Position numbers and translations under genes: made by a program. The notes under the pieces are model-generated. The model had not been told where the DNA came from and did not search any database. It saw only the letters and a list, made by a program, of their open reading frames with translations. A stretch of 64,000 bases of DNA, from the NCBI GenBank assembly GCA_034435455.1, contig DAOTXL010000002.1:39023-103022 (forward strand), written 5' to 3'. Below are positions 4,528 through 33,379 of the stretch, in pieces (the stretch's first letter is position 1; every line of letters starts with the position of its first letter). The DNA comes from Anaerolineae bacterium (GTDB taxonomy: Bacteria > Chloroflexota > Anaerolineae > JAAYZQ01).

Positions 4528-4538
4528 TTTTTTCCTTC

Positions 4539-7947: not shown

Positions 7948-8610
7948 TCAATATGATGACGATGGCAGGGGGACGGCGGCCAGGAGCGGCTCTACCAGCC
8001 GGGCCAGTTCGTGGTAGAAAGGCAGCCGGGCCGCCTGCTCCACACGCTGGCAAAAGGTCGGCAGCCAGGGCCGCACCTGCTGGCTCAAGAACGCCTGCTG
8101 CTGGGCCAGGAGCAACCTGGCTTGTTCCTCGTCGCCGGATTCCTGGGCGGCCAGGGCCTGCTCACCCAGCCAGGCCAGGAACTCCAGCTCGGCGGCGATG
8201 TGGTCGGGCAGGTCGTGGTACTCCTCGGCCAGGGCCAGGCCCGCCAGCCGGTAGGCCGCCAGCGCCGCCTCGGCCGATTCGCCCATCAGCAGCCCCTGGC
8301 CGGTGTAGGCCGAGGCGTAGGGCGGCGCCGGCACATGGGGCACGGCATTGATGAACAGGTAGGTGTATTCCACCTGCAGGGCCTGCAACGCCATCCCTGG
8401 CTCTTCGGGCAATGTTTCTATGGCCCGTCGCACCCCTTCCGCCGAAAGCCCCAGCGGGTTCAGCACCCCGGTCAGGGCTTGCGGCCACTGCCCGTCGAGC
8501 AGCATCTCGACCCAGGCGGCGTCGGGGTAGGTGAAGCCCCGTGCCAGTCCGCGCAGCGCGGCCAGCCAGAGCCGTGTTGATTCCGTCGTCCCTCTTCCGT
8601 TGTCGTTCAC
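7948..8610 (-). CDS. TorD/DmsD-family molybdoenzyme maturation chaperone
   Basis: TorD-like helical protein; only plausible start is GTG overlapping alpha stop (GTGA) with AAGGTG RBS; no ATG before conserved N-terminal helix. Confidence 0.6.
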   Translation of the reverse strand: MNDNGRGTTESTRLWLAALRGLARGFTYPDAAWVEMLLDGQWPQALTGVLNPLGLSAEGVRRAIETLPEEPGMALQALQVEYTYLFINAVPHVPAPPYASAYTGQGLLMGESAEAALAAYRLAGLALAEEYHDLPDHIAAELEFLAWLGEQALAAQESGDEEQARLLLAQQQAFLSQQVRPWLPTFCQRVEQAARLPFYHELARLVEPLLAAVPLPSSSY

Positions 8611-10838: not shown

Positions 10839-11001
10839 AGAGACACACTCCTCCGCCGTCGTTGAACTCTTGGCGACAAGATCCGTCGCCGGGATACCAC
10901 AACGCCCACCAGCAAAGAGGTCGGTGGGCGTCACCCGGCAGGCCAGATTTCGACCACCTCCGGGCAAAGCTCCGCCTTCTCCCTTGCAGGGGCCGTCCTC
11001 C

Positions 11002-11010
11002 ATTGTACCA
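11002..11010 (-). promoter_or_regulatory. Extended -10 (TGgTACAAT) promoter candidate for the FDH-N-like operon, 155-nt structured leader
   Basis: Minus-strand ctggtacaat; leader 10839..10995 contains two GC hairpins (acgcccacc…ggtgggcgt; ggcgac…gtcgcc). Confidence 0.35.
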
Positions 11011-11183
11011 GGAACTGCCTGGCCGCACATCGTGCAAAGTGACATGTTTCACCTGGCACTTTGGGCAGACTATGCGCCGCAGCGACAGGCACACCTGGCG
11101 GAGACACGGACAGGCATTTTGGGCAAAGCCCTAAGCATTTAGCGCCGCCGCCCCACACCTTCCGGTGGAGCAGGGGATCATTT

Positions 11184-13760: not shown

Positions 13761-14924
13761 TCAGGCCGCAACCGGTAGCCCGGCGTGTTCCGACTCGCTG
13801 GCAACCTCCTCTTTGAACACCGGGAAGTAGTGGGTGATCAACGTATACGCAACAACACCACTTGCCAGCAGACCGATGGTGACGGCAAACTCCATCCAGT
13901 GGGGGAAGTAGCTCCCCGTAGGCACCATCTGGCCGATGACGCTGACATCAAGGCGGTTAAGAATTAAGCCCCCGACCACCAGTAGCGCCCCCCAGAACAG
14001 CCCGGCAGCGCTCTGTCGTACTTTGGGGATGGCGAACAACACGGCTGGCAACAGCACGCCCCCTACCATTTCGAGCAAGAACAGATTGCTCCGCACACTT
14101 CCTTCGAACATCAATCCGAACTCACCGGCAACCAGCAATTCAACCACCTTGAGCACAAAGTAGATTCCCAGCACGTAGGGTACGGCGCTGGCTAATCCAG
14201 AGAGAAGGTCTTTCTCCAGAGGCCGTTTCAAGGCTTTCGCGCTGACCACCGACTCCAGGATCACCATCGCCAGCCCTACCGCCACCGCGGAGGTGAAAAA
14301 GAACACGGGCAGTAAGGAAGAATACCACAGTGGGTAGAGCCGGTAGCGCAGGAGCAGAAACAGCGAGCCTAACGAGGACTGGTGCAGAGTGGAGAGGATC
14401 ACCCCGATGATCACCAGGGGGATCTGGATGGCACGAATGATACGCAGGGGCACCTGCCAGCCAAAGCGTTCAAAGACCACCGGGCTAAACTCCAGGGCCA
14501 TGACCGTAGTGTAAAGCATCACGCACCAGCCCACCTCAAAGAGCACCGAGTGAAAGTTCCAATAGATAATCAGGTGCCAGATATGATGCGGCTTGGCCAG
14601 GTCGGCCAGCAAGCCCAGGATGACCAGCAGATAGCCCAGGAAGCCGGTCAGCAACGCTGGCCGAACAATGGGGTGATACTTTTTCAGATTAAAGATGTAG
14701 ACGGTCGCAGCCACCACAAACGCTCCGGCGCCCAAGGCCACACCTGAGACTACGTCGAAGCCGATCCACAGACCCCAGGGATAGCTATCGCTCAGATTGG
14801 TGGCACGGCCCAAACCCAGGGCAAACCGGGCTACCCAGATCGCCATGCCGATCACCGCTACGGCTATCAGGATCCATAGTCCCACTGGAAGAGCACGCTT
14901 CTGTACTTTGGTTGCCTTTGTCAT
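13761..14924 (-). CDS. NrfD/PsrC/HybB-family polytopic membrane subunit (quinone-interacting anchor)
   Basis: 387 aa, 8-10 TM helices, typical NrfD-family pattern. Confidence 0.75.
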   Translation of the reverse strand: MTKATKVQKRALPVGLWILIAVAVIGMAIWVARFALGLGRATNLSDSYPWGLWIGFDVVSGVALGAGAFVVAATVYIFNLKKYHPIVRPALLTGFLGYLLVILGLLADLAKPHHIWHLIIYWNFHSVLFEVGWCVMLYTTVMALEFSPVVFERFGWQVPLRIIRAIQIPLVIIGVILSTLHQSSLGSLFLLLRYRLYPLWYSSLLPVFFFTSAVAVGLAMVILESVVSAKALKRPLEKDLLSGLASAVPYVLGIYFVLKVVELLVAGEFGLMFEGSVRSNLFLLEMVGGVLLPAVLFAIPKVRQSAAGLFWGALLVVGGLILNRLDVSVIGQMVPTGSYFPHWMEFAVTIGLLASGVVAYTLITHYFPVFKEEVASESEHAGLPVAA

Positions 14925-14925
14925 G

Positions 14926-15687
14926 TTACCCCTCCTTCGCTTCAGGGTGAGCAGCGCTTTCTTTCTGCAGTCGCTCCCGACGCTGGAAGAACCAATAGAA
15001 TCCGCTCAGGACCACTGCCAATCCCCCGATCCCGTAAGGCACGTAGGAGACCACCTGCTCACTCAACTTCGTGACCGGCTCCGTGCCCACCGTCGGGAAG
15101 CCTAGCTCCTCGAAGGGCACCGGGGAGATGTACAACCAGGAAGTCCCTCCCACTTCATGTTCCCCGTAGATGTGTTGCACGTACTTGCCGCTACTGGCCT
15201 GAATGCGCTGCTTGGCCTCAAGCAGCAGAGCGTCGCGCTCTCCGAACTTGAGGGCACCCGAGGGGCAGTCAGAGACACACGCTGGCTCTAATCCGGCTGC
15301 CTGGCGATCTGCACAGAAGGTACACTTTTGTATAGAGGGCAAGAGCGCGTCCCAGTTGAGCTTTGGCACACCGAACGGGCAGGCCGTCATGCAGTAGCGA
15401 CAGCCGATGCATTTATGGGCGTCGTATACGACCGGTCCATTGGCCGTCTTTTGCAAGGCACCCACCGGGCAGGCTGAGACGCAGGCCGGGTGCTCGCAGT
15501 GCATACATTGCCGCTTGGTAGTGAACAAGCGTACACCGGGGAATAGGCCCATCTCAAAGCTGTGAATGCGGGTCCACAAGACCCTCTTCTCCTCCACCGG
15601 CACCCCCCGGTTTAGCGTACAGGCTGCCGTACAGGTCTCACAGCCAATGCAGCGGCCGATATCTACCAACATCGCAGATGTGCTCAT
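14926..15687 (-). CDS. 4x[4Fe-4S] ferredoxin electron-transfer subunit (PsrB/HybA-like) with C-terminal TM helix
   Basis: CIGCETCTAAC, CMHCEHPACVSACP, CIGCRYCMTACP, CTFC…CVSDCP; ATG 15687 with AAGGAGGAG RBS. Confidence 0.8.
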   Translation of the reverse strand: MSTSAMLVDIGRCIGCETCTAACTLNRGVPVEEKRVLWTRIHSFEMGLFPGVRLFTTKRQCMHCEHPACVSACPVGALQKTANGPVVYDAHKCIGCRYCMTACPFGVPKLNWDALLPSIQKCTFCADRQAAGLEPACVSDCPSGALKFGERDALLLEAKQRIQASSGKYVQHIYGEHEVGGTSWLYISPVPFEELGFPTVGTEPVTKLSEQVVSYVPYGIGGLAVVLSGFYWFFQRRERLQKESAAHPEAKEG

Positions 15688-15724
15688 TCTGGCACTCCTC
15701 CTTTCACTGTCCTCAACGCCCGGC

Positions 15725-18220
15725 TCACACGCGCTCCACCCGGCACTTGGCCGTTTTCCAGCCAGGCATCTCGGTATGCTCACCAGGATCGTCCAAGGTG
15801 AGGGCATTGGGCCTGGTCGTCCGCAATCCCTGGGTCGGAGAACTGGGGCCAGCGTGCGTCGGGATGTTCACGACCTTGGGATGAATCCGCTCCGTCAGCA
15901 CTGCGTGCATGACCACCGCCCCCCGGGGCGTGCTGACCTGGACCTGATCTCCGCTGGATAGGCCCAGATGGGCCGCCGTCTGGGGGTGCAATTCCACGAA
16001 CACCTCCGGTTCGATGGCCCTCGAAAGAACATCCCAGCGCGTCGCCCAGTGCATGTGGACGGCCGTGGGCTTGTTGGTGGTCATGATCAGTGGGTATTCC
16101 TCGCTCCAGTTGATGTTCTCGCTCTTGTCTTCGGGTTCCTCCTGGACGTCACGGAACTCGGGCAGGCCGGCGTGATGCCAGTTTTCGCCTATATCCACGT
16201 GGACCTTACCGTCAGGGGTCATGAACTTGGGCACCTCCGGGTCATCCGGGTTCATGAACAGGAAGGGCATGCCACCTTTGTCGGCCATCATCGGTGGGCA
16301 GGGGAAAGTGACGCCGCCCTTGGGACTCCATGCTTTCACGTTGTCCAGGGTCATCCCGGCATAGGGGTTCATTTGCGGCCCCATCTCTTGGGCTTTCGCC
16401 ATGGCCGTGGCCTCGTCCAGGCCCTGCTGCATTAACTGCGCCTTGACCGTCATGATCTGCATGTTGGTCATCATCATGCTGGTGACGGTCATGTAATAGT
16501 TGTAAATGGCTTCCGGCCCTTGAGAGAACATCTCGTACGGCCACAACGGTTTCTGGTACTCCGGGTTGTCCATGCCGTTCCCCGTGGTGGTCTCGGTGCA
16601 GAGTTCATCGCCGTAGACCCGCCGCCCCAATTCGTTCCAGATCCACCAGTAGGGCCTGGATTCGCCCAGGGACTCGATGGCCTTTTCCTTCCAGCGCACG
16701 GCCCCATTGCTGCCAGCCATCAGGTTGGAGCCCCCCTCCTCAAACTCGCTGCAAATCGGCAGGATGTAATGGGCATAGTCCGCCGTTCCGTCGTGGAACA
16801 TGGTGAGGTGAACCACCAGGCCCTCGGCCTTGAGCCGTTCCAGGCCCTGACGGAGGGCGTCGGAATTGGGCGTTCGGGCCAGCAGGCTGCCGCTGGCGAA
16901 GAGGACTTTGACGCGCCCCGCCACCATCCCTTCACGGGTCACGCTGGGGGGTTGGTCGCCGGGGTCATAGATGTCATCCACCTTGCCCGGGCCGAAGCGC
17001 CACCACTCGACCTTCATGCCGGTGGTGGGCAAATTCATCACCCCCACGACGCCGGGCTTGCCGTGGATGCCGCCGCCGGGCAGACCAAAAGCGCCCAACA
17101 CGACCGGGATGAGCATCACCGCCCGGCCGGCCTGGTAGCCGTTCGATTGAGCGCTCAACGCCGAACCCAAGACGAAAGCGGTCTTGCGCCCGGCCGCAGC
17201 CATCTCTCGGGCCAACTGGCGGATGGTATCGGCCGGCACCCAGGTGATCTGGGACACCGTCTCGGGATCATACTGGCTGACCAACTGCTTCAGCTTGTCC
17301 ACGTCGCCTTCCACCACATAGTCATTCAGGCGCGGATAGGTCAGGTTCTCGGCAAAGAGGACGTGGAGGATGCCCAGGGCCAGCGCCCCATCGGTGGCCG
17401 GGCGGATGGGGATGTACTGGTCGGCGCGGGCCGCCGAGGGAGTATAGCGCGGGTCGATGCAGACCACCTTGGCGCCATTGTCCTGGGCTTCCAGGATGAA
17501 TTGGAAAGCGACAGGCATGGTGCTGGCCCAGTTGCTGGCCCAGATCACGACGTATTTGGACTGCGGCAAGTCGGTGTCCAGGTTGCTGCGGAACATGTAG
17601 CCGAACAGCGATTTCGCCGCCCGCAAAAAGTTCCCCCCGCAGGCCTGGCAGCCCCCGTAGTGCGGCCGGGCGCTGAACGCCCGCTTGAAGCGATAGAGCA
17701 TGGCTAATCCCTCCGCCCGCACCCGGGGGGTCGTGTAGAAGGCCACCAACTCTTTCTCTTCCTCCGTCTGCTGGCCGACGCCGCCGCGATCCATCCAAGG
17801 CTGGCGCAGCTCTCGCAGCCGGGCGGCGATCTCGTCCAACGCCTGCTCCCAGCTCACCTGCACCCAGCCTTGCCCTTCTCGCTTCAGGGGATACAGGATG
17901 CGATCGGGGTTGTACGTGTCCCCCACGGCCGTCAGGCCTTTGACGCACAGCTTGCCCCCGGTGAAGCGGTCAGTGGCCAGGCCTTCCGCGTGGACGATCC
18001 GCCCGTCCTTCACGTAGACTGTCCGACCGCAGTGGTGCGTACAAGGGTTGTCGCAGAACGAGAGGCGTGGCTCGCCCTCCGCCCAGGAAGGGGCAACACC
18101 AGACTCCGTTGTGCGTGCAAACACCTCATCCGGCGAGCCGAACGTCTCCAGCAACGTCAAGCCTGTGACACCGGCTCCGGCGGCTTTCAGAAACTGCCTT
18201 CTGGTCATCTCGTGGCTCAT
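15725..18220 (-). CDS. Tat-dependent molybdopterin oxidoreductase catalytic subunit (PsrA/PhsA/ArrA-like) with unusual CX3CX3C motif and Met-rich insertion
   Basis: Tat signal MSHEMTRRQFLKAAGAG; FCDNPCTHHCGRT…KLCVKG; ATG 18220 with GGGGGAGG RBS; residues ~594-688 of ORF contain 17 Met. Confidence 0.8.
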   Translation of the reverse strand: MSHEMTRRQFLKAAGAGVTGLTLLETFGSPDEVFARTTESGVAPSWAEGEPRLSFCDNPCTHHCGRTVYVKDGRIVHAEGLATDRFTGGKLCVKGLTAVGDTYNPDRILYPLKREGQGWVQVSWEQALDEIAARLRELRQPWMDRGGVGQQTEEEKELVAFYTTPRVRAEGLAMLYRFKRAFSARPHYGGCQACGGNFLRAAKSLFGYMFRSNLDTDLPQSKYVVIWASNWASTMPVAFQFILEAQDNGAKVVCIDPRYTPSAARADQYIPIRPATDGALALGILHVLFAENLTYPRLNDYVVEGDVDKLKQLVSQYDPETVSQITWVPADTIRQLAREMAAAGRKTAFVLGSALSAQSNGYQAGRAVMLIPVVLGAFGLPGGGIHGKPGVVGVMNLPTTGMKVEWWRFGPGKVDDIYDPGDQPPSVTREGMVAGRVKVLFASGSLLARTPNSDALRQGLERLKAEGLVVHLTMFHDGTADYAHYILPICSEFEEGGSNLMAGSNGAVRWKEKAIESLGESRPYWWIWNELGRRVYGDELCTETTTGNGMDNPEYQKPLWPYEMFSQGPEAIYNYYMTVTSMMMTNMQIMTVKAQLMQQGLDEATAMAKAQEMGPQMNPYAGMTLDNVKAWSPKGGVTFPCPPMMADKGGMPFLFMNPDDPEVPKFMTPDGKVHVDIGENWHHAGLPEFRDVQEEPEDKSENINWSEEYPLIMTTNKPTAVHMHWATRWDVLSRAIEPEVFVELHPQTAAHLGLSSGDQVQVSTPRGAVVMHAVLTERIHPKVVNIPTHAGPSSPTQGLRTTRPNALTLDDPGEHTEMPGWKTAKCRVERV

Positions 18221-18263
18221 TGCATTGCCTCCCCCTTCTGTACTATGGTACGAAAAGATATGC

Positions 18264-18917
18264 TCAGTGGTTTCCTCCTGCATCCAATTGCTGCGCCAGG
18301 GTCGTCAGCAGCCCATCGGCGAGCCGGGCGACCGGCTTGTAGAACCGGGCGGCGTCCAGGGCGTACAGCTCGGTGCAAAACCGGGGCCCCCAGGCCAGCA
18401 AGTGCTCCTGAAGAAAGCGCCGGGCTATGTCCAGATATTGCTCTTCCCCGGTCTCCAGGAATACTCGCCCCAGGTAAGCCATGAAGCCCAGCTCCAGGCC
18501 AAAGTGATCGGGCGGGTAGTTACAGGCATGGATGCTCTGCACGCCGGATTCGGCCCAGAAGGCGCGAACCTGGTCCACCGACTCGCCCATCAGTAGTCCC
18601 TGGAACGTCTGCCCTCCCACGGTCAGGCGATCCCGATAAACCGACTCGTAGGGATGAACGGTCCGAGGTTGCGGCCCGACGAACAACGCGGCGAATTCCC
18701 GGCGCAGTTCGCCGTGCAGATCGGCCGCATCCCGCCCCCGTTGGGCTCGGGCGAACGCCCGCAGAGCCTCCAGCCCGTGGACCAGTTTGCCGTTGCTGCC
18801 CGGTGGCGCTGGCAGGTCCAGCTCTCCCTGCACCATCTCTGTGGCCAGGGCGAGAGGGGGCTCCTCCAAAAAGAGGGCCGCAACCATCCATTCCAACGAA
18901 ACCAGCGTTGGATCCAC
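18264..18917 (-). CDS. TorD/DmsD-family molybdoenzyme chaperone
   Basis: 217 aa, TorD-family helical pattern; immediately upstream of alpha subunit. Confidence 0.65.
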   Translation of the reverse strand: MDPTLVSLEWMVAALFLEEPPLALATEMVQGELDLPAPPGSNGKLVHGLEALRAFARAQRGRDAADLHGELRREFAALFVGPQPRTVHPYESVYRDRLTVGGQTFQGLLMGESVDQVRAFWAESGVQSIHACNYPPDHFGLELGFMAYLGRVFLETGEEQYLDIARRFLQEHLLAWGPRFCTELYALDAARFYKPVARLADGLLTTLAQQLDAGGNH

Positions 18918-21526: not shown

Positions 21527-22771
21527 TCAGGGGCACAGGATGATCCCCTGCGCCCACAAGCAATCCCCGCACGCGGGGAACTCGTTGCCGAAGCAGTCTT
21601 CCTCGTTCGATTCAGAGTACTGGCAGCCACCACAGTCGACGCAGGGCGAAAAGTCGAATTCCACGACCCGCCGGCGGAACTGCTGGTATTTGGTGTGCTG
21701 CCAGACACGCGTGATGGCCTCGTCGTTGACATCGCCCACGACATAGCGCCGGATCGCTTTCTCCCGGCCGAGGATGTAGCAGGTGTAAGAGTGCATGAGG
21801 GCGATGCATGGACTCACCCCACCGTCCCAGGCTACAGCTACGGCGCCTTCGCGCACAAAGCGGCAGTAGCCCTTGAGACTGCCAGAGTGCTCAAGAAGAG
21901 GGTCGATCGTTCCACCATGCCGCAGGAGCCCTAACAGAGGTTCCAGGACTTCAGGGCGAGCATCAATCCGCGGCAGCACAATCTCCGGATACCACCGCGA
22001 GCGTGTCCGGGGATGCGGGCTGCCCGCTGCCAAAGAGTACAGGATCTCCTCGCTGAACTCTTGAGCGTAGGGCAGTACGTTGGTCACGACGATGAAACTG
22101 GCCTCCAGCGAGTGGGCCAGGCGCCGGAGGTTCGGCAGCTCCGACAGGTTACGCCGCGTGACCACGAACTCCAGGCCAATCTCCGGATTGCCACGAGGGT
22201 TCATGCGCCGCAGCGCCAGCAGGTGGCCGACATTTCGCTGTACCAGGTGCAGGTCCGTGCCTGCCCTGATGCCTGCGTTACTTTCCGGCGAGGCCCCGTC
22301 GACCGAGATGACCAGCGTGCCCAACCCAGCCTGAACCAACCCTTCGGCCATCCCCTGGTCCAGGAGTAGCCCGTTGGTGATCAACTCCGTCCTGGCCCCC
22401 AGCTCCCCGGCCAGAGCCACCATCTCCACGATGTCGGGGTGCAGCAACGGCTCGCCCAGCCCCCAGAAGGCCACGGTCTGTAGCGCAGGCGTCTCTCGCA
22501 GGCCCTCGACAAGCCGCCGATAGGTGTCCGTCGCCATGGTCCCGCCCGGCTCATCCCAGGAGCGACGGATGCAGATGGGGCAGTTCAGATTGCAGGCCGT
22601 GGTCGGTTCGACGTAGACCTGGCGCAGCGGCGGATCGGCCGGGCGGAGCAGTAACCCGTCTGCTGTCTCTTCGATCTGGAACCCGGTGCCGGGTGTCAGT
22701 CCCCAGCGGCGCCGCTCTTCCTCCGGTAACCACAGCGCCCCGTCCCGGCCTACGACCTGCTCTTCGCTCAT
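21527..22771 (-). CDS. Radical SAM / SPASM-domain enzyme with N-terminal AbrB/MazE-like swapped-hairpin domain (paralog 1)
   Basis: N-term GALWLPEEERRRWGLTPGTGFQIEETADGLLLRP fits AbrB-N pattern; CNLNCPIC radical SAM triad; C-terminal Cys-rich SPASM (CVDCGGCQYSE…CGDC). Confidence 0.8.
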   Translation of the reverse strand: MSEEQVVGRDGALWLPEEERRRWGLTPGTGFQIEETADGLLLRPADPPLRQVYVEPTTACNLNCPICIRRSWDEPGGTMATDTYRRLVEGLRETPALQTVAFWGLGEPLLHPDIVEMVALAGELGARTELITNGLLLDQGMAEGLVQAGLGTLVISVDGASPESNAGIRAGTDLHLVQRNVGHLLALRRMNPRGNPEIGLEFVVTRRNLSELPNLRRLAHSLEASFIVVTNVLPYAQEFSEEILYSLAAGSPHPRTRSRWYPEIVLPRIDARPEVLEPLLGLLRHGGTIDPLLEHSGSLKGYCRFVREGAVAVAWDGGVSPCIALMHSYTCYILGREKAIRRYVVGDVNDEAITRVWQHTKYQQFRRRVVEFDFSPCVDCGGCQYSESNEEDCFGNEFPACGDCLWAQGIILCP

Positions 22772-22780
22772 GCGCTTCCC

Positions 22781-24679
22781 CTATACCAACGCCACCACCA
22801 GCCAGCCGGCCAGCAGGACGAACAGCCCGGCGGTGAGCAGCTTGACCGCCGCCGCCCGGCGGTTGATGAACTGCGCCAACTGCTCCGAGGTGGTGCCCAG
22901 GTAGGCCAGCACAAAGACCACCACCAGCGGCAGGATGAACATCAGATTGTAGAGCAGCAGGTAGGCAGCAGCCCGTGCTTTCAGGTTGGGCACGCCCAAC
23001 ACGAAAATGATGGTCGGCAGGTAGACCTGGCCGGTGCAGGCCAGCTCGATGAACGAGATGACCATGCCCGTGACCAAGGCTACCGGCACAAAGGCGCGCA
23101 ACCCGGCTCCCTCGCGGATGACACGGTTGATCCACCGGCGCAGGCGCAGCGGCAGCTTGAGCCGCATCTCCTCCGGCCGGCCACGGCGGGCCTGCCACCA
23201 GTCGTACAGGCTGCCGGCAGCCAGGAAGAGGCACAGGACCGCCGTCAGGCCGTACACCCAGCGGCTGATGGCGCTCAGGAAGGGCAGCGAGGCCAGGAAC
23301 TTGAGCAGGCCAAAGCCGACCCCCAGGTAGGTGAGGAACACGCCCAGGGCAAAGGCCGCGCCCACGGCCAGTACCTCGCGCCGGCCACGGCCGACGAAAG
23401 CCAGGTAGGAGATGAAAAAGACGATGGTGGCAAAGGCACAGGGGTTCAACCCGTCCACCAGCCCGGCGGCCAGCACGGTGAGCACCCCGAAGGAGCGGAA
23501 GCGCTCCACGATGCTGCCCGCGGCCTGGTCCTGGGCGGCCTCCCAGCCCTCCCAGGCAGGCTCGGCCCCGGTCGCGGCGTAGCGAGCGACGAGCGCCTCC
23601 AGGGCCTGGGCGGTCAGTTCCTGGTCCACCAGCGCCTCGTCGCCGACGAACACCGCTGGGGCGATCAGGCGTTTCGCCTCCGGCACGCCGGCCTGTGCCC
23701 CCAGCCACTCGCACAGCGCCGCCTCGGCCTTGACATCGAACTCGTGGACGACGAGCTGCGGATACTGCCCCTGCAAGTAGTTCAGGTCCAGGCTCACCCG
23801 GTCGCATTCACGGCAGCCGGGTTGGTAAAAGTAGGCCAGGTGGATGGGAGGCGCGTCCTCGACGACGGTGGCTGCCGGCGTTGGGGTGGGTAGTTCTACC
23901 TGGGGCAGGTCCACGCCCCCCTGGGCCAGATAGAAGTCGATCAACTCCTCCAACCGGGCCTCGATCTCCGCATTGCCCAGGAGGGCATAGTCGCCGATGA
24001 AAATCTCGGGCATATCGCCGTACTCGAGGCCGTACTGAGCCTCGAGGGCCAGCATCTCTTCGTAGTAGCCCTTTTCCAGATCGAACTCATAGATCTCGAC
24101 CTGGCCTTTCTCGTACTTGTCCAGGATCGGTGGCAGGATCTCCTCTTTCAGCACCAGGCAGGAGTCGCAGTTGCTGTCGTAGAACAGCCAGAAGCGTACC
24201 ACCGCCTCGGCGCCCGCTTCCGGCGTGGGTGTAGGCGGCGGAACCGTGGGTGTGGCAGTGGTGTCCAGCCAGGCCTCCAGGCCGGGGATGGCTGGATAAT
24301 CCAGGCCGCCGGCCGCCAGGTGCTGTTCGATCAGCCCCGGCAACTGCTGGGGGATGTCGTAAGAGCCGACCAGCACCCGGTCGCCGATGAACAGCATCGG
24401 CACGCCACGCTGATCGTCGGGCACGCGCTGGGCTTCCATGGCCGCCCGCCACAACTCATAGCCTGCCGGGTCCGACACCTCGATGGCCACCACCTGGAGT
24501 TGGTCGCCATACTTTTCCTGCAGCGGCGGCAGGGTCTCGGTCAGCACCACGTGGCAATGGGGGCAGGTTTCGGCCCAGAACAACACGGCGCGCACCACAG
24601 GCTCCTCGGCGTGGGCAGCCGGCAACGCCGGGAGCAGCAGGAGCAGCGGCAACAACAGCCATCTCATATTTCGTTCCAT
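22781..24679 (-). CDS. Signal-peptide protein with three thioredoxin-fold domains (CPHC, CDSC, CREC) fused to C-terminal CcdA/DsbD-type transmembrane domain
   Basis: Cleavable signal MRWLLLPLLLLLPALPAAHA; three Trx-like units separated by Pro/Thr linkers; C-terminal 6 TM with CcdA Cys motifs GLNPCAF and ELACTGQ. Confidence 0.75.
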   Translation of the reverse strand: MERNMRWLLLPLLLLLPALPAAHAEEPVVRAVLFWAETCPHCHVVLTETLPPLQEKYGDQLQVVAIEVSDPAGYELWRAAMEAQRVPDDQRGVPMLFIGDRVLVGSYDIPQQLPGLIEQHLAAGGLDYPAIPGLEAWLDTTATPTVPPPTPTPEAGAEAVVRFWLFYDSNCDSCLVLKEEILPPILDKYEKGQVEIYEFDLEKGYYEEMLALEAQYGLEYGDMPEIFIGDYALLGNAEIEARLEELIDFYLAQGGVDLPQVELPTPTPAATVVEDAPPIHLAYFYQPGCRECDRVSLDLNYLQGQYPQLVVHEFDVKAEAALCEWLGAQAGVPEAKRLIAPAVFVGDEALVDQELTAQALEALVARYAATGAEPAWEGWEAAQDQAAGSIVERFRSFGVLTVLAAGLVDGLNPCAFATIVFFISYLAFVGRGRREVLAVGAAFALGVFLTYLGVGFGLLKFLASLPFLSAISRWVYGLTAVLCLFLAAGSLYDWWQARRGRPEEMRLKLPLRLRRWINRVIREGAGLRAFVPVALVTGMVISFIELACTGQVYLPTIIFVLGVPNLKARAAAYLLLYNLMFILPLVVVFVLAYLGTTSEQLAQFINRRAAAVKLLTAGLFVLLAGWLVVALV

Positions 24680-25062
24680 ATCATTTCCTCCATTGTCTCG
24701 CTATCGATCCAATCGTCACAAACGTTCTGGATAGATAGCGAAAGCTTTGGAGGAGGAGGCGCGGGCGCCAGCCACGTGGATAGGTCGTGGATGACTGGCA
24801 GGGCAACAGCCAGGATCAGAATCGGAGGGATGGGCATTCCCAGAGCGCCGGGCAGCCCGGTACAGCAGAACAGGCTGCAGCCGGGCATCTGAGCTTGCGG
24901 TTCCGGCGTGGTGTCCGGCTGGCAGCAGCGCTGGCAGCCGGAGACGGACCGCGCCGTCTGAGCGCGAAGGCAGAGGGGGCCGGCCACGAGGTGCAGGGTT
25001 AGCCCACCCAAAATGGCGACGACGCACAAGACGACGAACAGGCGCAGGATGCCGTATCTCAT
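24664..25062 (-). CDS. Small Cys-rich membrane protein (N-terminal TM; CLRAQTARSVSGCQRCCQPD…GCSLFCCTG)
   Basis: ATGA overlap with upstream gene stop (25059-25062) and 16-nt overlap with downstream gene start support expression; 2 hydrophobic segments; 9 Cys. Confidence 0.5.
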   Translation of the reverse strand: MRYGILRLFVVLCVVAILGGLTLHLVAGPLCLRAQTARSVSGCQRCCQPDTTPEPQAQMPGCSLFCCTGLPGALGMPIPPILILAVALPVIHDLSTWLAPAPPPPKLSLSIQNVCDDWIDSETMEEMIWNEI

Positions 25063-25589
25063 GGCATGAGCTCCGCCAACCGCCGCCCGCCCTCGGCATA
25101 CTCCGGCTCCGCCAGGTGGGGACAGGCCGCCAGGCCCAGTTCGCCGAACAGCAATCGGAAGGCAAAGGCCAGGCAGGTCCGTTCGCCGCAGTCACCGCAG
25201 TTGAGCCGGGGCAGCAGCCGGTAGGCGTCCAACGGCCCCAACTGTTGCCGCCGCTCGTAACAGGGCTCGATCTCGGCCCGGCGACGCCAGGTGTCGTTGC
25301 ACAGCTCCTGGAACCAGCGCAGTTGGGCCTCGGCGTCCTCCTCGCCGTCCACTTTGGCCATCACTGCCACGTGCGGGTAAAAGGTCAGGATGCGCCCGCC
25401 CCGCTTGACGGTCACGGTGCCGGCGCCGGGGTTGTACATCAGGTTGGGCACGACGGCGTTCAGGTAGGGGAACACCTCCCCTACCTGATCCCACAGCTCG
25501 GCAATGATCCGGTTCTTGGTCGGGTCGGCAATGCAGTCCATCACCTGGATGATGGTAAAGCCGCGCAGCAGTACGCCGTCGTCGCTCAT
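25059..25589 (-). CDS. DUF3786-like protein with C-terminal CODH/ACS-type Fe-S cluster domain (paralog 1)
   Basis: C-terminal LLPRLNCGDCGERTCLAFAFRLLFGELGLAACPHL matches the CX2CX4C…CP Fe-S domain of corrinoid FeS protein N-termini; paralog of 31585..32136. Confidence 0.65.
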   Translation of the reverse strand: MSDDGVLLRGFTIIQVMDCIADPTKNRIIAELWDQVGEVFPYLNAVVPNLMYNPGAGTVTVKRGGRILTFYPHVAVMAKVDGEEDAEAQLRWFQELCNDTWRRRAEIEPCYERRQQLGPLDAYRLLPRLNCGDCGERTCLAFAFRLLFGELGLAACPHLAEPEYAEGGRRLAELMP

Positions 25590-25598: not shown

Positions 25599-26777
25599 CT
25601 ACGGGCAGCGGATGATGCCCTGCGCCCACAGGCAATCGGCGCAGGAAGGCACGTTGCCCAGGCAATCCTCGTTGTTCTCGGCATAGTCGCAGGCCAGGCC
25701 ACAGTCCACGCAGTACATGAAGCGAAAATCGCGCACCCTGGCCCGAAAACGCACATATTCTTCCGACTGCCAGATGTCGGCCAGCGCCTGCTCGTTCACG
25801 TTGCCCAACAGGTAGCGGCTCACATTTTTGCGCCGGCCATAGATGTAGTAGGGGTAGCTGTGCATCAGGGGGTAGCAGGGGCTGACCCCGCCATCCCAGC
25901 CGATGACCACGGCCCGGTCCTCGACGAAGCGGCACTGCCGCCAGGCCCCCCACTTCATGCGCGGCAGGTCCATCCGCCCCCAGCCGATACCGCCTGCCTC
26001 TTTCACCGGCCAGCTCAGGGGCAGGCCCAGCGGCTCATCGCTGTCGTACAGGATCTCATCGCCCATGGCTTCGGTGTGGGGCAACAGATTGCTGACCAAC
26101 ACTTTGGAGGCTCCCAACCCGGCGGCGATCTCCCGCAGGTGCGGCAGATGGTCCCGGTTGGAGCGGGTGGCGACGAACTCCAGCCCCAGGTTGAGGGGCA
26201 ACCCGCCGCGCTGTTCGGCCAGGCGCATCAGGCGGCGGGCATTGTCCAGCACCCGCTCCAACCCGCCGACGATGCGCGCCCCGTCGTAGGCCTGGGTATG
26301 CACCGTGTCCAGGGAGATAACCACCCAATCCACCGCTGCCGCCAGCAGGCAGTTGGCCATCGCTTCGTCCAGCAGCAGGCCGTTGGTCGTCACCGTCAGC
26401 GGCACCCCCAGCGTCGAGGCCAGGGCCAGCATCTCCGGCAGGCGGGGGTGGACCAGCGGTTCGCCGTAGCCGCCCAAAACCAGGCGCCGTAGGTCCGGCA
26501 GAGCACGCAACCCGGTGATGGTCGCCTCGAACGTCTCCCAGGCCATGTCGCCAGGTGGGTCACTCCATACCTGGCGGACACACACAGCACAGTTCAGGTT
26601 GCAGCGGGTTGTCACCTCCAGGTAGGCCTTGCGGGTGTCGGGGCGGACGCGGTGCAGTCGCAACCCGTCCTCAAACGATTCGACGACGACCCGGGCCCCT
26701 GGCTCCAGCCCCAGACGGGCCACCTGCTCAGCCGGCAGAATCAGCCGTCCATCCACCTCTATTGTCAATTCAGGCAT
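25599..26777 (-). CDS. Radical SAM / SPASM-domain enzyme with N-terminal AbrB/MazE-like domain (paralog 2)
   Basis: LTIEVDGRLILPAEQVARLGLEPGARVVVESFEDGLRLHRV; CNLNCAVC; SPASM Cys cluster; colinear with 21527..22771 protein. Confidence 0.8.
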   Translation of the reverse strand: MPELTIEVDGRLILPAEQVARLGLEPGARVVVESFEDGLRLHRVRPDTRKAYLEVTTRCNLNCAVCVRQVWSDPPGDMAWETFEATITGLRALPDLRRLVLGGYGEPLVHPRLPEMLALASTLGVPLTVTTNGLLLDEAMANCLLAAAVDWVVISLDTVHTQAYDGARIVGGLERVLDNARRLMRLAEQRGGLPLNLGLEFVATRSNRDHLPHLREIAAGLGASKVLVSNLLPHTEAMGDEILYDSDEPLGLPLSWPVKEAGGIGWGRMDLPRMKWGAWRQCRFVEDRAVVIGWDGGVSPCYPLMHSYPYYIYGRRKNVSRYLLGNVNEQALADIWQSEEYVRFRARVRDFRFMYCVDCGLACDYAENNEDCLGNVPSCADCLWAQGIIRCP

Positions 26778-27588: not shown

Positions 27589-27897
27589 TCACCTCCTTTT
27601 CTCCTCTGGCCGGCCTGCGCCGGCCCTTGCCTGCCAATAGGCTGTGTACTCGCGCAACAGCGCCTCTTTATAGTCCTGCTCCGAGCCACGGGCGACCCAG
27701 TTGCGCGTTTGAATCATGGCCAGTAGCTCTTCCGCCGTCTCCGGGCCCGGCTGGCGGTCCAGCAGGTAGAGTTGCTTCAGGACATCATCCAGCCCGACAA
27801 TGCCTACCGGTACGCCGCCGATCTGGATCTGCCGCACCCGGGCATCCAGGTTACAACTACAGGACTGCCTCCACATATCCGGTCCTCGTCCGGGCAT
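27589..27897 (-). CDS. Small uncharacterised 'IxIGG/E' domain protein (paralog of N-terminus of 31003..31578)
   Basis: …QIQIGGVPVGIVGLDDVLKQL…YKEALLREYTAYWQ aligns with FRQILIGEQMVGLWGLQELFDEL…YEEALLREYRRYWK. Confidence 0.45.
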   Translation of the reverse strand: MPGRGPDMWRQSCSCNLDARVRQIQIGGVPVGIVGLDDVLKQLYLLDRQPGPETAEELLAMIQTRNWVARGSEQDYKEALLREYTAYWQARAGAGRPEEKRR

Positions 27898-31002: not shown

Positions 31003-31578
31003 TCACCGGCCCAGCCGGGCCAGCGTCTCCCGGGGTGGGAAGCGGATGGCCCCCCGCCTGCACACCTTCACACAGGCATCGCAGCCAACCAGGCAGTTGA
31101 AGGGAGCGACGACGATGGCCTGGTGGCCGGCCTCGTCCAGTTCGTATACCCCGTAAGTGCAGAAGGTCAGGCAGTCACCGCAGCCATCGCAGCGGTCGGG
31201 ATAGATAGTCGGGTACCACGGTATCTGCTCGCGGGGTTTGCCCTGCCAGGTGCGGGGCGGCAGCGTCTGGGGGCGCTTCTCCGCCCCCTGGCCCTCCTTC
31301 TCTCGCTCCTTCCAGTAGCGGCGATACTCCCGGAGCAGCGCCTCCTCGTACAGCGGCCGGGCTTTGGGAAAGACATAATTCTCCCGCTCGACCCTCTCCA
31401 GCAGCAGCGGGGCCAGGCCCGGCTCCGGGGCGCGACCCTGGCTGCGCAGCTCGTCGAACAGCTCCTGCAGCCCCCACAGCCCCACCATCTGCTCGCCGAT
31501 CAGGATCTGCCGGAAACTCAATTGCGCCACCGAACCGCCTCCTCTCCCGCCCGACAGCTCCCTCTCTGCCGGCGGCAC
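31003..31578 (-). CDS. Fusion of 'IxIGE' domain with C-terminal 2x[4Fe-4S] ferredoxin
   Basis: N-term FRQILIGEQMVGLWGLQEL…ALLREYRRYW; C-term CDGCGDCLTFC and CLVGCDACVKVC. Confidence 0.6.
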   Translation of the reverse strand: MPPAERELSGGRGGGSVAQLSFRQILIGEQMVGLWGLQELFDELRSQGRAPEPGLAPLLLERVERENYVFPKARPLYEEALLREYRRYWKEREKEGQGAEKRPQTLPPRTWQGKPREQIPWYPTIYPDRCDGCGDCLTFCTYGVYELDEAGHQAIVVAPFNCLVGCDACVKVCRRGAIRFPPRETLARLGR

Positions 31579-31584: not shown

Positions 31585-32136
31585 TTACCCCTCCCGCCGG
31601 CCAATGGCCGGCAGATCGACCGCCAGCAGGTCTGCCAGTTGCGCCTGTTGTTCGGCATATTGGGGTTCGCTCAGCAACGGGCAGTCCTGCAACTGCACCT
31701 GGCCGGCTACCAGCTTGTTGGCAAAGACAAAGCAGGTAGCCTGGCCGCAGGCCTTGCAGTTGGTGCGGGGCAGCAGCTTATAGACCTCCATCAACCCCGG
31801 CCGGCGGCGCACCTCGTAGCTCGGTTCGATCTCGGCCCGCTGCTCCCAGGTGCGGTTGACCAGTCGGATCAGCCCTTCGACCTCCTGGATGGCTGCGTCC
31901 CGGTCAGGAACATTGCTGACGGCGATTTCGTAAGGGTGAAACGCAATGTTGTGCCCGCCCTTCTTCCAGGTCAGAGCAGGGGCAGCGACATTATAGACCG
32001 CGCCGCGCAGGGTCGCGTTCAGGTAAGGCAACACCTCGCGGATGTCGGTCACCAACCGGGCGACGGCGCTGAACCGCTCTGCCCCCGGATCACAGGGTGG
32101 GGTGGACACTTCCAGGTCGTACTTTTCGATCAACAT
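31585..32136 (-). CDS. DUF3786-like protein with CODH/ACS-type Fe-S cluster domain (paralog 2)
   Basis: LLPRTNCKACGQATCFVFANKLVAGQVQLQDCPLL; ATG 32136 with GGGAGGAAAG RBS; ORF-track N-extension is read-through. Confidence 0.65.
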   Translation of the reverse strand: MLIEKYDLEVSTPPCDPGAERFSAVARLVTDIREVLPYLNATLRGAVYNVAAPALTWKKGGHNIAFHPYEIAVSNVPDRDAAIQEVEGLIRLVNRTWEQRAEIEPSYEVRRRPGLMEVYKLLPRTNCKACGQATCFVFANKLVAGQVQLQDCPLLSEPQYAEQQAQLADLLAVDLPAIGRREG

Positions 32137-32140
32137 CAGA

Positions 32141-33379
32141 CTATCTTTCCTCCCACGAGTTCTCCTCAAACACCGGCACCCGGCCCTCGGCCACGCAGCG
32201 GTGGGCGAAGAGGTACATCCCCGCCGACCAGGCCTGGTGCGGATATCCCATCGGCCGACCTGTGCGGCCGTGGCACCACTCGTTGAACTCCCACTCTTCC
32301 TCGATCCCCAGCCGATTGACCTCGGCCAGCCTCTCCAGTTGTCGCCGCGCCTCCTCCAGGCGCCCGGCCTTGACCAGCGCAGCGACGTAAAAGCCGCCGA
32401 CAAAGGGCCAGATGCCGCCGTTGTGATACTGCTCGGGCAGGTTCAGGTTGTTGTTGCGATAGTACTCGCGCCAGTCTTTGTTGCCCGGATGGATGACCGG
32501 GTGCAGCACCCGCACCGGGTACGGTTCGGCGATGCCCACCTGGTGTAGATAGTCCAGGATGCGCCGCTCCTGGGCCGGGTTAGCCACGCCGAACAGCACC
32601 GCCAGCAGGTTGCCGAATACGTCGCAATAGTCGCCATAGTCGCGAAAGGCGACGTAGGGCAGGAAGAAGGGTCGCTTGACCAGCACCGGGTCCACCTGGC
32701 TAAGAGTGTGCCGCCACTCGCCATGGCCCGGGCAGGTCGGCCCCCATTCTTCGGCGTTCTCCGGCCCCACCCACAGCACGATACGCAGCTTGTGCCGCAC
32801 GTCGGCGGCCATCTCGGCATAACGCGATCCATCCTTCTCCAGGGTGTCAGCCATGACGGTCATGGCCCGCAGCGCCGCATACCACAGGACATTATCGTAC
32901 AGGATATTGAAGCGGTTGGCAAGCAGGTCGGCCCAGTCGGCGGCCTCGTGCACCTCCAGCAGGCCGCAGCCGTTCGAGTCCTGGTAGCGCAGCCACAGCA
33001 GCGCCCGCTCCAGAGAGGGCCAGTGCGCCCGCAGGGAATCGGCGTCGCCGGTCATCTGGTGGTTGATATAGTGGCCGACGATGTACCACAGGTTCGAGTC
33101 CACCGAGCCGGCATTGGTGTGGTCCAGCCGGCCCGTGGCGACGCTGACGTTGTTGGGGATGGCCCCCAGTTCCGACTGCTGACCGGCCAGGGTGTGCAGC
33201 GAGGTGCGCAGGCAACCCTCGTGACCGGCGGTCAGGCTGGCTCCCAGGCCGGTAATGACGCTGTCCCGCGCCCAGACGTGGGGGTAACCCTCCGGCGAGG
33301 CCATCAATCCCAGCGGGCTGCATTCGCGGCCCAGCACGTCCTCGGCTTTTTCTAACGCCATTTCAGTCAAGTTGCTCAT
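32141..33379 (-). CDS. Six-hairpin glycoside hydrolase, GH100 (neutral/alkaline invertase) / amylo-1,6-glucosidase-like
   Basis: 412 aa, family pattern (…NLWYIVGHY…HEAADWAD…GGIWPF…). Confidence 0.55.
   Translation of the reverse strand: MSNLTEMALEKAEDVLGRECSPLGLMASPEGYPHVWARDSVITGLGASLTAGHEGCLRTSLHTLAGQQSELGAIPNNVSVATGRLDHTNAGSVDSNLWYIVGHYINHQMTGDADSLRAHWPSLERALLWLRYQDSNGCGLLEVHEAADWADLLANRFNILYDNVLWYAALRAMTVMADTLEKDGSRYAEMAADVRHKLRIVLWVGPENAEEWGPTCPGHGEWRHTLSQVDPVLVKRPFFLPYVAFRDYGDYCDVFGNLLAVLFGVANPAQERRILDYLHQVGIAEPYPVRVLHPVIHPGNKDWREYYRNNNLNLPEQYHNGGIWPFVGGFYVAALVKAGRLEEARRQLERLAEVNRLGIEEEWEFNEWCHGRTGRPMGYPHQAWSAGMYLFAHRCVAEGRVPVFEENSWEER

Follow-up and report, generated by a model that had tools for sequence, protein, structure and literature searches.

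What would a bacterium gain from an exported protein in which three thioredoxin-like domains precede a CcdA-like membrane domain? The answer is not obvious, because the genome that encodes the protein already has a conventional thioredoxin and CcdA pair. To our knowledge, DsbD-type conduits are the only route by which bacteria move thiol-reducing power out of the cytoplasm. We found the gene in question at positions 22781..24679 of the window, the 64,000-nt stretch of an Anaerolineae contig (DAOTXL010000002.1) that was analysed. The gene lies on the minus strand, as do all features with coordinates below, and encodes 632 amino acids plus a stop codon: a signal peptide, three thioredoxin-like domains and a CcdA-like six-helix membrane domain. 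Its ATG follows a Shine-Dalgarno sequence, GGAGGA, whose end lies 7 nt upstream. An independent Logan contig carries the identical protein, called as a gene and flanked by the same neighbours, and the protein has more than 1,691 homologues. We regard it as a real but uncharacterised membrane protein, which probably exports reducing power to its three thioredoxin-like modules.

The N-terminus, MERNMRWLLLPLLLLLPALPAAHA (residues 1-24; 24608..24679), is followed by EEP and has the n-h-c layout of a Sec-type signal peptide, with cleavage predicted from the sequence after AHA; this segment is helical and of low confidence in the AlphaFold model. The protein has 10 cysteines in 632 residues, and only Cys323, Cys414, Cys483 and Cys548 lie outside the CxxC motifs. 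These motifs are CPHC (residues 39-42), CDSC (171-174) and CREC (289-292), against a chance expectation of about 0.16 CxxC for a protein of this length and cysteine content. The three motifs take up equivalent positions in domains that are homologous to one another, and they do not vary among 48 homologues. Thus the signal peptide, the three CxxC domains, the Pro/Thr-rich linkers and the six-helix C-terminal domain described by the initial annotation are all present in the reading frame, the sequence and the AlphaFold model.

We found thioredoxin-fold support for each of the three domains, by different means. Domain 1 (residues 25-135; 24275..24607, with CPHC at nt 24554-24565) scores above the Pfam cut-offs for both Thioredoxin_4 (26.0 bits, cut-off 23.2) and Thioredoxin (24.9 bits, cut-off 23.5). 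Domain 2 (residues 158-262; 23894..24208, with CDSC at nt 24158-24169) was recognised through hhalign, which pairs it with domain 1 at a probability of 99.9 (E 2e-36), and through the thioredoxin-fold secondary structure in its model. Domain 3 (residues 278-375; 23555..23848, with CREC at nt 23804-23815), which adjoins the membrane domain, matches domain 1 with a probability of 97.5 and domain 2 with 98.7, and shows the highest conservation among the three (mean column identity 73%). Pfam searches with domains 2 and 3 gave marginal glutaredoxin or thioredoxin matches in 1-4 of 17-19 members. All three are modelled as beta-alpha-beta-alpha-beta-beta-alpha, with the CxxC motif beginning helix 1 and a conserved proline preceding strand 3; the pLDDT of domain 1 is 80-94. 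C39, C42 and P94 in domain 1, C171, C174 and P224 in domain 2, and P341 in domain 3 are invariant in the homologue alignment. P94, P224 and P341 occupy the cis-Pro position of the thioredoxin fold, and the fold suggests that they would adopt the cis conformation. Foldseek matched the model of the protein to PDI, ERp57, calsequestrin and the N-terminal domain of AhpF, and the matches to multi-thioredoxin proteins covered 370-500 columns with E values of 9e-6 to 1e-3. Linker 1 (residues 136-157; 24209..24274) and linker 2 (residues 263-277; 23849..23893) are Pro/Thr-rich low-confidence segments of the model, with pLDDT below 50 at residues 142-156 and 265-273, respectively. In many homologues, linker 1 contains an extra CxxC motif in the sequence PTPTxKACHICDE; the protein studied here lacks KACHICDE.

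The remainder of the protein consists of a juxtamembrane helix (residues 376-397) and a six-helix domain (residues 398-632), together at 22784..23554. Residues 398-632 contain six hydrophobic segments, modelled as six long helices. Cys414 lies in TM1 within DGLNPCAF (nt 23438-23440) and Cys548 in TM4 within ELACTGQVYLP (nt 23036-23038), and both helices are broken at these cysteines in the model. Both cysteines and their motifs (DGxNPCAF and ExxCTGQxYLP) are invariant in 146 diverse representatives sharing at most 50% identity. The loops predicted to be inside contain 17 positively charged residues and those predicted to be outside contain 4; this indicates an N-out/C-out topology, which places the domains led by the signal peptide outside.

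The initial annotation called this domain CcdA-type, and this holds at the superfamily level. In an hhalign comparison with the profile of genuine CcdA (PF02683), the membrane domain aligned over 212 columns with a probability of 94.2 (E 2e-8), pairing NPC with GPC and CTGQ with QCATP, so that both catalytic cysteines of CcdA are aligned. The match with the CcdA encoded in the window itself had a probability of 89.5, and decoys (a reversed profile, Acr3, ArsP and NrfD) gave at most 0.4%. A closer assignment found no support. Neither the protein nor any of 20 membrane domains of the family matched Pfam DsbD_TM (PF02683) or DsbD_2 (PF13386), even at E<=10. Searching the PDB with a sequence profile of the membrane domain returned no CcdA or DsbD structure and only chance matches, such as ExbB and NuoK. 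The Foldseek match to the CcdA NMR structure 5VKV was not significant (E 0.83, TM 0.33-0.36), the query being a low-confidence model of the membrane domain alone (pLDDT 60), which is worse than the full-length model. The internal repeat of TM1-3 in TM4-6 that members of this superfamily should show was not detected by hhalign in the membrane domain (probability 0.7), but genuine CcdA gave no signal either (0.1), so this comparison carries no weight. These profile comparisons support the membrane domain as a divergent member of the DsbD/CcdA superfamily, with kinship at the superfamily level only.

The sole curated model that detects the membrane domain is that of ArsG (NCBIfam NF040495), an aromatic aminobenzylarsenical efflux permease, and the match spans TM1-TM2 including NPC. 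This raises the alternative that the protein handles metals or metalloids. The membrane domain would then be a permease for a thiophilic species, for example As(III), organoarsenicals, Hg(II) or Cu(I), its two intramembrane cysteines might serve as ligand-exchange sites, and the exported CxxC modules might bind the metal(loid) or pass it on, on the model of MerP/MerT or ArsG. All 20 membrane domains tested match ArsG with E values of about 2e-7, and the PTPTxKACHICDE sequence in the unstructured linker of many homologues resembles a metal site more than it does a redox fold. The association of closer homologues with ArsR/ArsP/ACR3/ArsC islands, described below, also fits, and electron flow is not required of every DsbD homologue (PMC2963123). 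However, the ArsG match is partial (positions 6-80 of the 225 in the profile) and reaches 28-31 bits against a cut-off of 200, and the genuine CcdA of the window matches the same model better and over its full length (47 bits, positions 4-223). Therefore, the likeness to ArsG is at the superfamily level only, and we rejected the identification of the protein as ArsG. Moreover, Cys414 and Cys548 align with the redox cysteines of CcdA, the protein has no linker CxxC, and the AhpC/TSA-Redoxin and Thioredoxin_7 domains fused to other family members are redox enzymes rather than metal carriers. We consider a role in metal(loid) handling unlikely.

The reading that we favour, and hold to be fairly probable, is that the protein is a divergent thiol-disulfide transporter of the DsbD/CcdA superfamily, fused at its N-terminus to three exported modules with a thioredoxin or glutaredoxin fold. 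The hallmark of this superfamily is two conserved cysteines, in TM1 and TM4 (PMC3322552), here Cys414 and Cys548. The classes described are DsbD, CcdA and ScsB, the third of which is linked to copper stress (PMC3322552). Like CcdA, the protein has six transmembrane helices, with a cysteine beside a proline in TM1 and a second cysteine in TM4, and an N-out/C-out topology that fits delivery to exported thioredoxin-like acceptors. It differs from CcdA in the family's own invariant motifs, which the Pfam models for DsbD_TM and DsbD_2 do not recognise, in a long cytoplasmic loop, rich in Arg and Lys, that joins TM3 to TM4, and in having its acceptors fused, whereas those of CcdA (such as ResA or CcmG) are separate proteins. 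Escherichia coli DsbD likewise combines the conduit and exported domains with cysteine pairs in one polypeptide that forms a relay, and domain 3 resembles its gamma domain in being a thioredoxin-like domain next to the membrane part, in parallel with the beta-gamma pairing (PMC3322552). However, in E. coli DsbD (alpha-beta-gamma) the alpha domain is Ig-like, there are eight helices and the gamma domain is C-terminal (PMC3322552), whereas the protein studied here has six helices and no Ig-like domain, carries all three thioredoxin-like domains N-terminally and ends with TM6. ScsB is also a conduit of the DsbD superfamily in a metal-stress locus, feeding exported thioredoxin-like proteins and peroxiredoxins; it combines eight helices with an alpha domain of its own (COG4233) and has a lysine eight residues past the first cysteine (PMC3322552). 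At this diagnostic position our protein has Phe422, and its N-terminal domains are thioredoxin-like. The protein thus fits neither E. coli-type DsbD nor ScsB.

The initial annotation implied that a fusion of three thioredoxin-like domains with a CcdA-type domain is rare. Instead, it is one copy-number variant within a very large Chloroflexota family, which already bears the automatic JGI label 'cytochrome c biogenesis protein CcdA/glutaredoxin'. Clustering at 50% identity divides the membrane domain family into about 3,800 clusters. Members are present in at least 563 species genomes, often in several copies per genome, and the best 80 are all from Chloroflexota. Its members carry 0-4 N-terminal thioredoxin-like modules; two is the commonest number and three is found in a minority. 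A CxEC domain of the domain 3 type adjoins the membrane domain in nearly all members. The core unit is this membrane-proximal CxEC module together with the membrane domain, and domains 1 and 2 are add-on modules of variable number. Some members have an AhpC/TSA-Redoxin domain C-terminal to the membrane domain, which recalls the link of ScsB with peroxiredoxins, and others have a Thioredoxin_7 domain at the N-terminus. These fusions provide Rosetta-stone support for a redox role. In the literature on ArsG/ArsEFG and on CcdA in Chloroflexi, we found no description of the family.

The direction of electron flow is less readily seen. Domain 1 carries CPHC, which the oxidase DsbA has at its active site, and therefore the redox direction cannot be read from the sequence. 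CPHC is also the commonest motif among the d1-type domains of the family (17 of about 40). An oxidative pathway of the DsbA/DsbB kind might be envisaged, in which the CPHC domain would add disulfides to exported proteins and electrons would pass inward through the membrane cysteines. The notion of 'reversing transmembrane electron flow' is the subject of a Saier-group review, as cited in PMC2963123. Against such a pathway, Pfam searches found no quinone-binding element resembling DsbB or VKOR, the CcdA class to which the membrane domain is related is reductive, and the AhpC/TSA-type fusion partners in the family consume reductant. The hosts are Anaerolineae-type Chloroflexota known from MAGs, and most of these are anaerobes, which also argues against oxidation. 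We find the oxidative pathway highly improbable.

The genes around the target suggest a further possibility. The initial annotation had placed the gene directly after a Cys-rich membrane protein and between two radical SAM genes, and this is correct for the window. Upstream lies an ORF of 132 amino acids (24664..25062), which shares 16 nt with the start of the target; it has two hydrophobic segments and the motifs CQRCC and CSLFCC, and matched no Pfam or NCBIfam family. It is preceded by a gene whose 176-aa product carries PF04060 ('putative Fe-S cluster') as its C-terminal domain (25059..25589; Pfam E 6.5e-10) and by a radical SAM/SPASM gene (25599..26777; 392 aa), recognised by Pfam Radical_SAM and SPASM, whose product has an AbrB/MazE-like N-terminus and scores 366.8 bits against TIGR04317, slightly under the cut-off of 380. 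A second radical SAM/SPASM gene (21527..22771; 414 aa), identified by Pfam and NCBIfam searches, begins 9 nt past the target, and the two radical SAM proteins are paralogues with 41.6% identity. The target may be a dedicated accessory of a local operon for radical SAM, Fe-S or molybdoenzyme maturation, supplying disulfides to the Cys-rich membrane protein or to the exported Psr/Phs-like molybdoenzyme that is encoded nearby, or removing them. The operon is indeed tight, with spacings of 9, -4, -16 and 9 nt from the upstream radical SAM gene through the Fe-S, Cys-rich and target genes to the downstream radical SAM gene. The gene order P5CR, radical SAM, Fe-S, small Cys-rich ORF and target is kept in relatives with 87-88% identity, and one of these (L091, 87% identical) resembles the window in having a two-component system and a Mo-oxidoreductase/TorD set nearby.

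However, L091 has a rhodanese gene in place of the downstream radical SAM gene, and these neighbours are kept only in the nearest relatives. Radical SAM genes are near family members at 2 of 35 loci of closer homologues and at none of 45 more distant species-level loci. The Cys-rich ORF, which shares 63-65% identity with its counterparts in the two closest relatives, is present at only one of 80 species-level loci and belongs to the local operon, not to a family-wide system. On this distribution, we rejected the radical SAM pair and the Cys-rich protein as obligatory partners. In addition, the thioredoxin-like modules are exported, whereas radical SAM enzymes are cytoplasmic, and the family extends far beyond the operon in both size and spread. 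We therefore regard an accessory role in this operon as very unlikely. The immediate neighbours of family members are heterogeneous in general; an AlaX-like gene lies downstream at 14 of 71 loci. Among the most frequent neighbours is the PF04060 homologue (16 of 80 loci, 11 of the 35 closer homologues), which lies directly downstream of the family member at two loci (L088 and L089).

A different context recurs among the closer homologues. They are found in islands with ArsR, ArsP, ACR3, ArsC, small thioredoxins and the PF04060 Fe-S protein; by raw counts, ars-type neighbours are present at 19 of the 35 closer loci and at only about a third of all 80. The window itself contains a bona fide ACR3 (439.6 bits, cut-off 282.8), ArsR, an ArsP-type permease and the pair of thioredoxin and genuine CcdA, as well as exported Psr/Phs-like molybdoenzymes. 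Thioredoxin_3 proteins lacking a signal peptide are encoded within 6 kb of the family member at 17 of 80 loci, and in L088 and L089 the gene for such a protein overlaps the start of the target homologue. These proteins are possible cytoplasmic donors. [quoted passage not shown] The two settings share ArsR, ArsP, ArsC, ACR3, the small Thioredoxin_3 and the thioredoxin and CcdA pair (PMC2963123). They differ in that the genes of those ars operons are separate and small and encode a canonical CcdA, whereas here several exported thioredoxin modules form one protein with a divergent CcdA-like domain.

Regarding the protein as a thiol-disulfide transporter, it is reasonable to see in it an electron conduit fused to three acceptors, as the initial annotation did, and we infer the following relay. 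A cytoplasmic donor of the thioredoxin type would reduce the membrane-embedded Cys414-Cys548 pair, which in turn would reduce the disulfide of CREC in domain 3, the domain nearest the membrane. Reducing equivalents might then pass outward from domain 3 to domain 2 (CDSC) and domain 1 (CPHC), which may act on extracytoplasmic thiols as flexibly tethered reductases or isomerases. The likely physiological role, and the most speculative step of this proposal, would be to keep envelope cysteines reduced, or to free them from adducts, under stress from arsenite, another thiophilic metalloid or reactive sulfur. We propose this role because many closer homologues reside in ArsR/ArsP/ACR3/ArsC islands and because the window has such an island too, along with exported Psr/Phs-like molybdoenzymes.

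The triple-domain protein is one ordinary member of its family and overturns no concept. The family is a very abundant, uncurated branch in which the relay is built differently, from a six-helix core with a fused, membrane-proximal CxEC module, to which differing numbers of other modules are added. A bolder and rather doubtful view is that it represents a fourth class of the DsbD superfamily, in which the exported CxxC array of variable copy number would be the functional output of the CcdA and thioredoxin genes of ars operons. As an extracytoplasmic thiol system, it might act at the surface of anaerobic Chloroflexota cells on adducts of arsenite, other thiophilic metalloids or sulfane, by reducing, repairing or sequestering them. 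The recurrence of the family in ArsR/ArsP/ACR3 islands gives a way to test what these ars-operon genes do, and the family bears on envelope thiol protection in anaerobic Chloroflexota.

We found that the ORF at 22781–24679 (minus strand) encodes a protein of 632 aa, here called the Trx-CcdA-like protein, and that a ribosome-binding site (GGAGGA) ends 7 nt upstream of its ATG. The protein begins with a predicted Sec-type signal peptide (MERNMRWLLLPLLLLLPALPAAHA/EEP) and ends with six hydrophobic segments (residues 398–632); between them, two Pro/Thr-rich stretches set apart the regions that bear its three, and only three, CxxC motifs (CPHC, residues 39–42; CDSC, 171–174; CREC, 289–292). The cysteines outside the CxxC motifs are at positions 323, 414, 483 and 548, with Cys414 lying within DGLNPCAF and Cys548 within ELACTGQVYLP. 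An independent public contig carries an identical protein with the same neighbours. Thus, the initial annotation was accurate in describing the ORF, signal peptide, CxxC trio, linkers, six transmembrane (TM) segments and two membrane cysteines, while its interpretation is supported in part.

The proposal of three thioredoxin-fold domains is upheld. Domain 1 exceeds the gathering thresholds of Pfam Thioredoxin_4 and Thioredoxin, and domains 2 and 3, each alone, give only marginal glutaredoxin/thioredoxin matches. When domain profiles made from 48 homologues were compared with hhalign, domain 1 matched domain 2 (prob 99.9, E 2e-36) and domain 3 (prob 97.5, E 6e-12), and domain 2 matched domain 3 (prob 98.7, E 4e-16), and across all three the CxxC motifs are in register, as are the prolines at the thioredoxin-fold cis-Pro position. 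By these profiles, each domain is a homologue of the other two. The six CxxC cysteines, Pro94, Pro224 and Pro341 are invariant in the 48 homologues. The AlphaFold2 model (mean pLDDT 75.8; 80–94 in the three domains) predicts the order β-α-β-α-β-β-α for each domain and disordered linkers. Foldseek searches with this model matched multi-thioredoxin-fold proteins over 370–500 columns (E 9e-6 to 1e-3), including PDI, ERp57, ERdj5, calsequestrin, the AhpF N-terminal domain and Aquifex PDO. In many homologues (among proteins P0017–P0119), the linker between domains 1 and 2 bears a conserved short motif, PTPT(I/V)KAC(H)xCDE(E), at a site corresponding to residues ~140–156 (nt 24209–24274) in the window, the Pro/Thr linker being otherwise disordered. 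This fourth exported CxxC lies outside any thioredoxin fold and looks like a putative metal-binding site; it is absent from the Trx-CcdA-like protein and its closest relatives.

The membrane domain had been called CcdA-type, which holds only at the superfamily level. Neither it nor 20 membrane domains of its family (the proteins sharing this six-helix domain) match Pfam DsbD_TM or DsbD_2, even at E ≤ 10, and a sequence-profile search with it found no relative among solved structures. On the other hand, a profile of 146 family representatives at ≤50% identity aligned over 212 columns with a profile built from genuine PF02683 CcdA proteins (prob 94.2, E 2e-8), placing the family NPC opposite the CcdA GPC in TM1 and CTGQ opposite QCATP in TM4. 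The window's own canonical CcdA matched the membrane profile with prob 89.5, and the decoys (reversed CcdA and the window's Acr3, ArsP and NrfD) all gave ≤0.4. The motifs DGxNPCAF and ExxCTGQxYLP are invariant in the 146 representatives, Cys483 is variable, and TM1 and TM4 are broken exactly at Cys414 and Cys548 in the AlphaFold2 model. Foldseek, run with a membrane-only model of low confidence (pLDDT 60), ranked the CcdA NMR structure 5VKV third, with the best TM-score of the list (0.33–0.36) and 20% identity, a match that falls short of significance (E 0.83). Of the basic residues of the domain, 17 are in loops that follow TM1, TM3 or TM5 and four are elsewhere, a count that suggests an N-out/C-out topology and would fit exported N-terminal domains. 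We conclude that this domain belongs to the DsbD/CcdA superfamily as a divergent branch and lies outside the curated Pfam family. The sole curated model that detects it is NCBIfam ArsG, with a partial match of 28–31 bits against a cut-off of 200. A metal(loid) permease with a binding system, like ArsG or MerP/MerT, might be supposed from this match. However, genuine CcdA matches ArsG better and full-length, so the similarity is at the superfamily level, and more evidence speaks against such a permease than for it.

The best-supported reading is a thiol-disulfide relay, whose direction of flow, donor and substrates we infer. The relay would run from a cytoplasmic thioredoxin-type donor to Cys414/Cys548, from there to domain 3 (CREC), through domain 2 (CDSC) to domain 1 (CPHC), and finally to envelope substrates. 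This is in line with the CcdA homology and its conserved catalytic cysteines, the compatible topology, the exported thioredoxin-fold CxxC modules, the conserved pairing of domain 3 with the membrane domain and the fusion of other family members to redox enzymes. An oxidative DsbA-like pathway is suggested by the CPHC motif, and on balance the evidence is against it. The putative mode of working of the relay is most CcdA-like, but the acceptors are fused. E. coli-type DsbD has eight helices rather than six (Cho et al., PMC3322552), and this identity was rejected, as the Ig-like alpha domain and the C-terminal gamma domain are missing. ScsB was likewise rejected: there is no COG4233 domain, and Phe, not Lys, stands eight residues after the first Cys.

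The initial annotation implied an unusual architecture, but it is widespread. There are more than 1,691 homologues of the full protein, many of 600–680 aa and from Anaerolineae or Chloroflexota MAGs; they are labelled hypothetical by NCBI and automatically 'cytochrome c biogenesis protein CcdA/glutaredoxin' by JGI. A search with the membrane-domain profile gave 3,791 clusters at 50% identity (E ≤ 1e-3), 1,343 of them at E ≤ 1e-30, and motif scanning found relatives in at least 563 species-representative genomes, several genomes having two family copies. The best 80 of these genomes are Chloroflexota by label with one exception, a 'Propionibacteriaceae bacterium' (locus L022), a suspected binning error. 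Of the top 150 representatives, 8 have no N-terminal thioredoxin-like module, 47 have one, 80 have two, 14 have three and 1 has four. The module adjoining the membrane is almost always of the domain 3 type with CxEC, and modules of the domain 1/2 type (CPHC, CxHC) stand in front of it. Some members have a C-terminal AhpC/TSA-Redoxin domain after TM6, and others have N-terminal Thioredoxin_7, HEAT or DUF1573 Ig-like domains; these fusion partners are redox enzymes. Thus, the triple version is a minority form within a modular family. The alternative architectures are found in representatives P0152, P0171, P0165, P0257, P0208 and P0233, and HEAT repeats with Thioredoxin_7 occur in family proteins of 1,274 and 1,517 aa. 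Our literature search found no paper describing the family.

On the gene-called contigs of other homologues, ArsR, LMW-PTP-type ArsC, an ArsP_1 permease and ACR3 are recurrent, as are runs of small Thioredoxin_3 genes, a Trx and canonical CcdA pair and a PF04060 protein. In raw counts over the 35 closer loci (≥55% identity, many on short contigs), ArsR, ArsP, ACR3, ArsC or Thioredoxin_3 is within 6 kb in 19, the PF04060 protein is nearby in 11 and the Trx/CcdA pair in 10. The family shares this genomic company with the ars-operon CcdA/thioredoxin genes (PMC2963123), from which it differs in being fused and divergent. No signal peptide is present in the small Thioredoxin_3 proteins, which are candidate cytoplasmic donors; at two homologue loci (L088 and L089), one such gene overlaps the homologue's start codon. 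In L089, an ArsR-led set (3745–7212) upstream of the two-domain homologue continues with a pyridine-nucleotide disulfide oxidoreductase, a GCV_H-like protein, two DGC-domain proteins and an OsmC protein, and looks like another thiol-redox module in these islands. The window holds its own ArsR-type island (45280–51439, minus strand; 45–51.5 kb), comprising a canonical CcdA (45280–45954; 84% identical to the CcdA of homologue locus L001), an exported Trx (45960–46493), a bona fide ACR3 (47225–48172), a Usp protein (48320–49210), ArsR (49294–49551) and an ArsP_1-type permease (49982–51439), which in NCBIfam best matches families of Cu/Zn efflux (SO_0444, SaoE) rather than an arsenic transporter. 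A link of the Trx-CcdA-like protein to arsenite or metalloid stress may be inferred. The immediate same-strand neighbours are heterogeneous in an unbiased survey of 71 species-level loci, and in 14 of them (L032 and 13 others) an AlaX-like gene is immediately downstream; therefore, that subgroup is in a housekeeping context, not a metalloid island. The downstream gene of the L032-type loci encodes ~410 aa, and its start resembles an AlaX-type alanyl-tRNA editing protein.

In the window, the gene is part of a tight operon with the order radical SAM (rSAM)/SPASM, PF04060 Fe-S protein, Cys-rich 132-aa ORF, Trx-CcdA-like gene and rSAM/SPASM, with successive gaps or overlaps of 9, −4, −16 and 9 nt. 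On the 5' side of the operon are genes for SufC, SufBD, a protein of 102 aa and a ProC-like reductase; on its 3' side are a two-component system and a TAT-exported Psr/Phs-like molybdoenzyme, together with its TorD-like chaperone and its 4Fe-4S and NrfD-type subunits. This arrangement lends some support to the idea of an accessory dedicated to the local rSAM and molybdoenzyme operon. The rSAM and Cys-rich context emphasized in the initial annotation is kept in relatives of 87–88% identity (rSAM, FeS, small Cys-rich ORF, Trx-CcdA-like gene), of which L091 has a rhodanese where the downstream rSAM would be, but not beyond them: an rSAM is near two of 35 closer and none of 45 more distant species-level loci, and the Cys-rich ORF near one of 80. 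The evidence against such an accessory role therefore outweighs that for it. The Cys-rich ORF (24664–25062, minus strand) has two hydrophobic segments and the motifs CQRCC and CSLFCC, and its last 16 nt overlap the Trx-CcdA-like start; its conservation is confined to the two nearest relatives and, in these, to roughly residues 1–113, and the L091 copy has lost one CC motif. The rSAM/SPASM paralogues (25599–26777 and 21527–22771, both minus strand) are 41.6% identical, each has an AbrB/MazE-like N-terminal domain, and they score 367 and 313 bits, just below 380, with TIGR04317 ('tungsten cofactor oxidoreductase radical SAM maturase'). They adjoin Psr/Phs-like molybdoenzymes, not tungsten AOR enzymes. 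The window has two sets (8607–11045 and 13761–18917, both minus strand) built around a TAT-exported Psr/Phs-like molybdopterin oxidoreductase. Each includes a TorD-like chaperone and has a paralogous histidine kinase/response regulator pair nearby, and the second also has a 4Fe-4S subunit and a membrane subunit of HmcC/NrfD type; in NCBIfam, every match of the two sets is far below its cut-off. The PF04060 paralogues of ~176 aa (25059–25589, and 31624–32148 within ORF 31585–32403, both minus strand) are 38% identical, with a C-terminal 'putative Fe-S cluster' domain and an N-terminal domain without family assignment. In Anaerolineae, their homologues recur beside ArsR, ACR3 and members of the Trx-CcdA-like family, at 16 of 80 loci. 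The 102-aa protein (27589–27897, minus strand) has no family assignment; its homologues are near the family in 10 of 80 loci, and its paralogue (31003–31578, minus strand) is fused to a weakly HgcB-like 2x[4Fe-4S] ferredoxin domain. The Trx-CcdA-like protein belongs to an abundant family that is uncurated, uncharacterised and mechanistically unsurprising.
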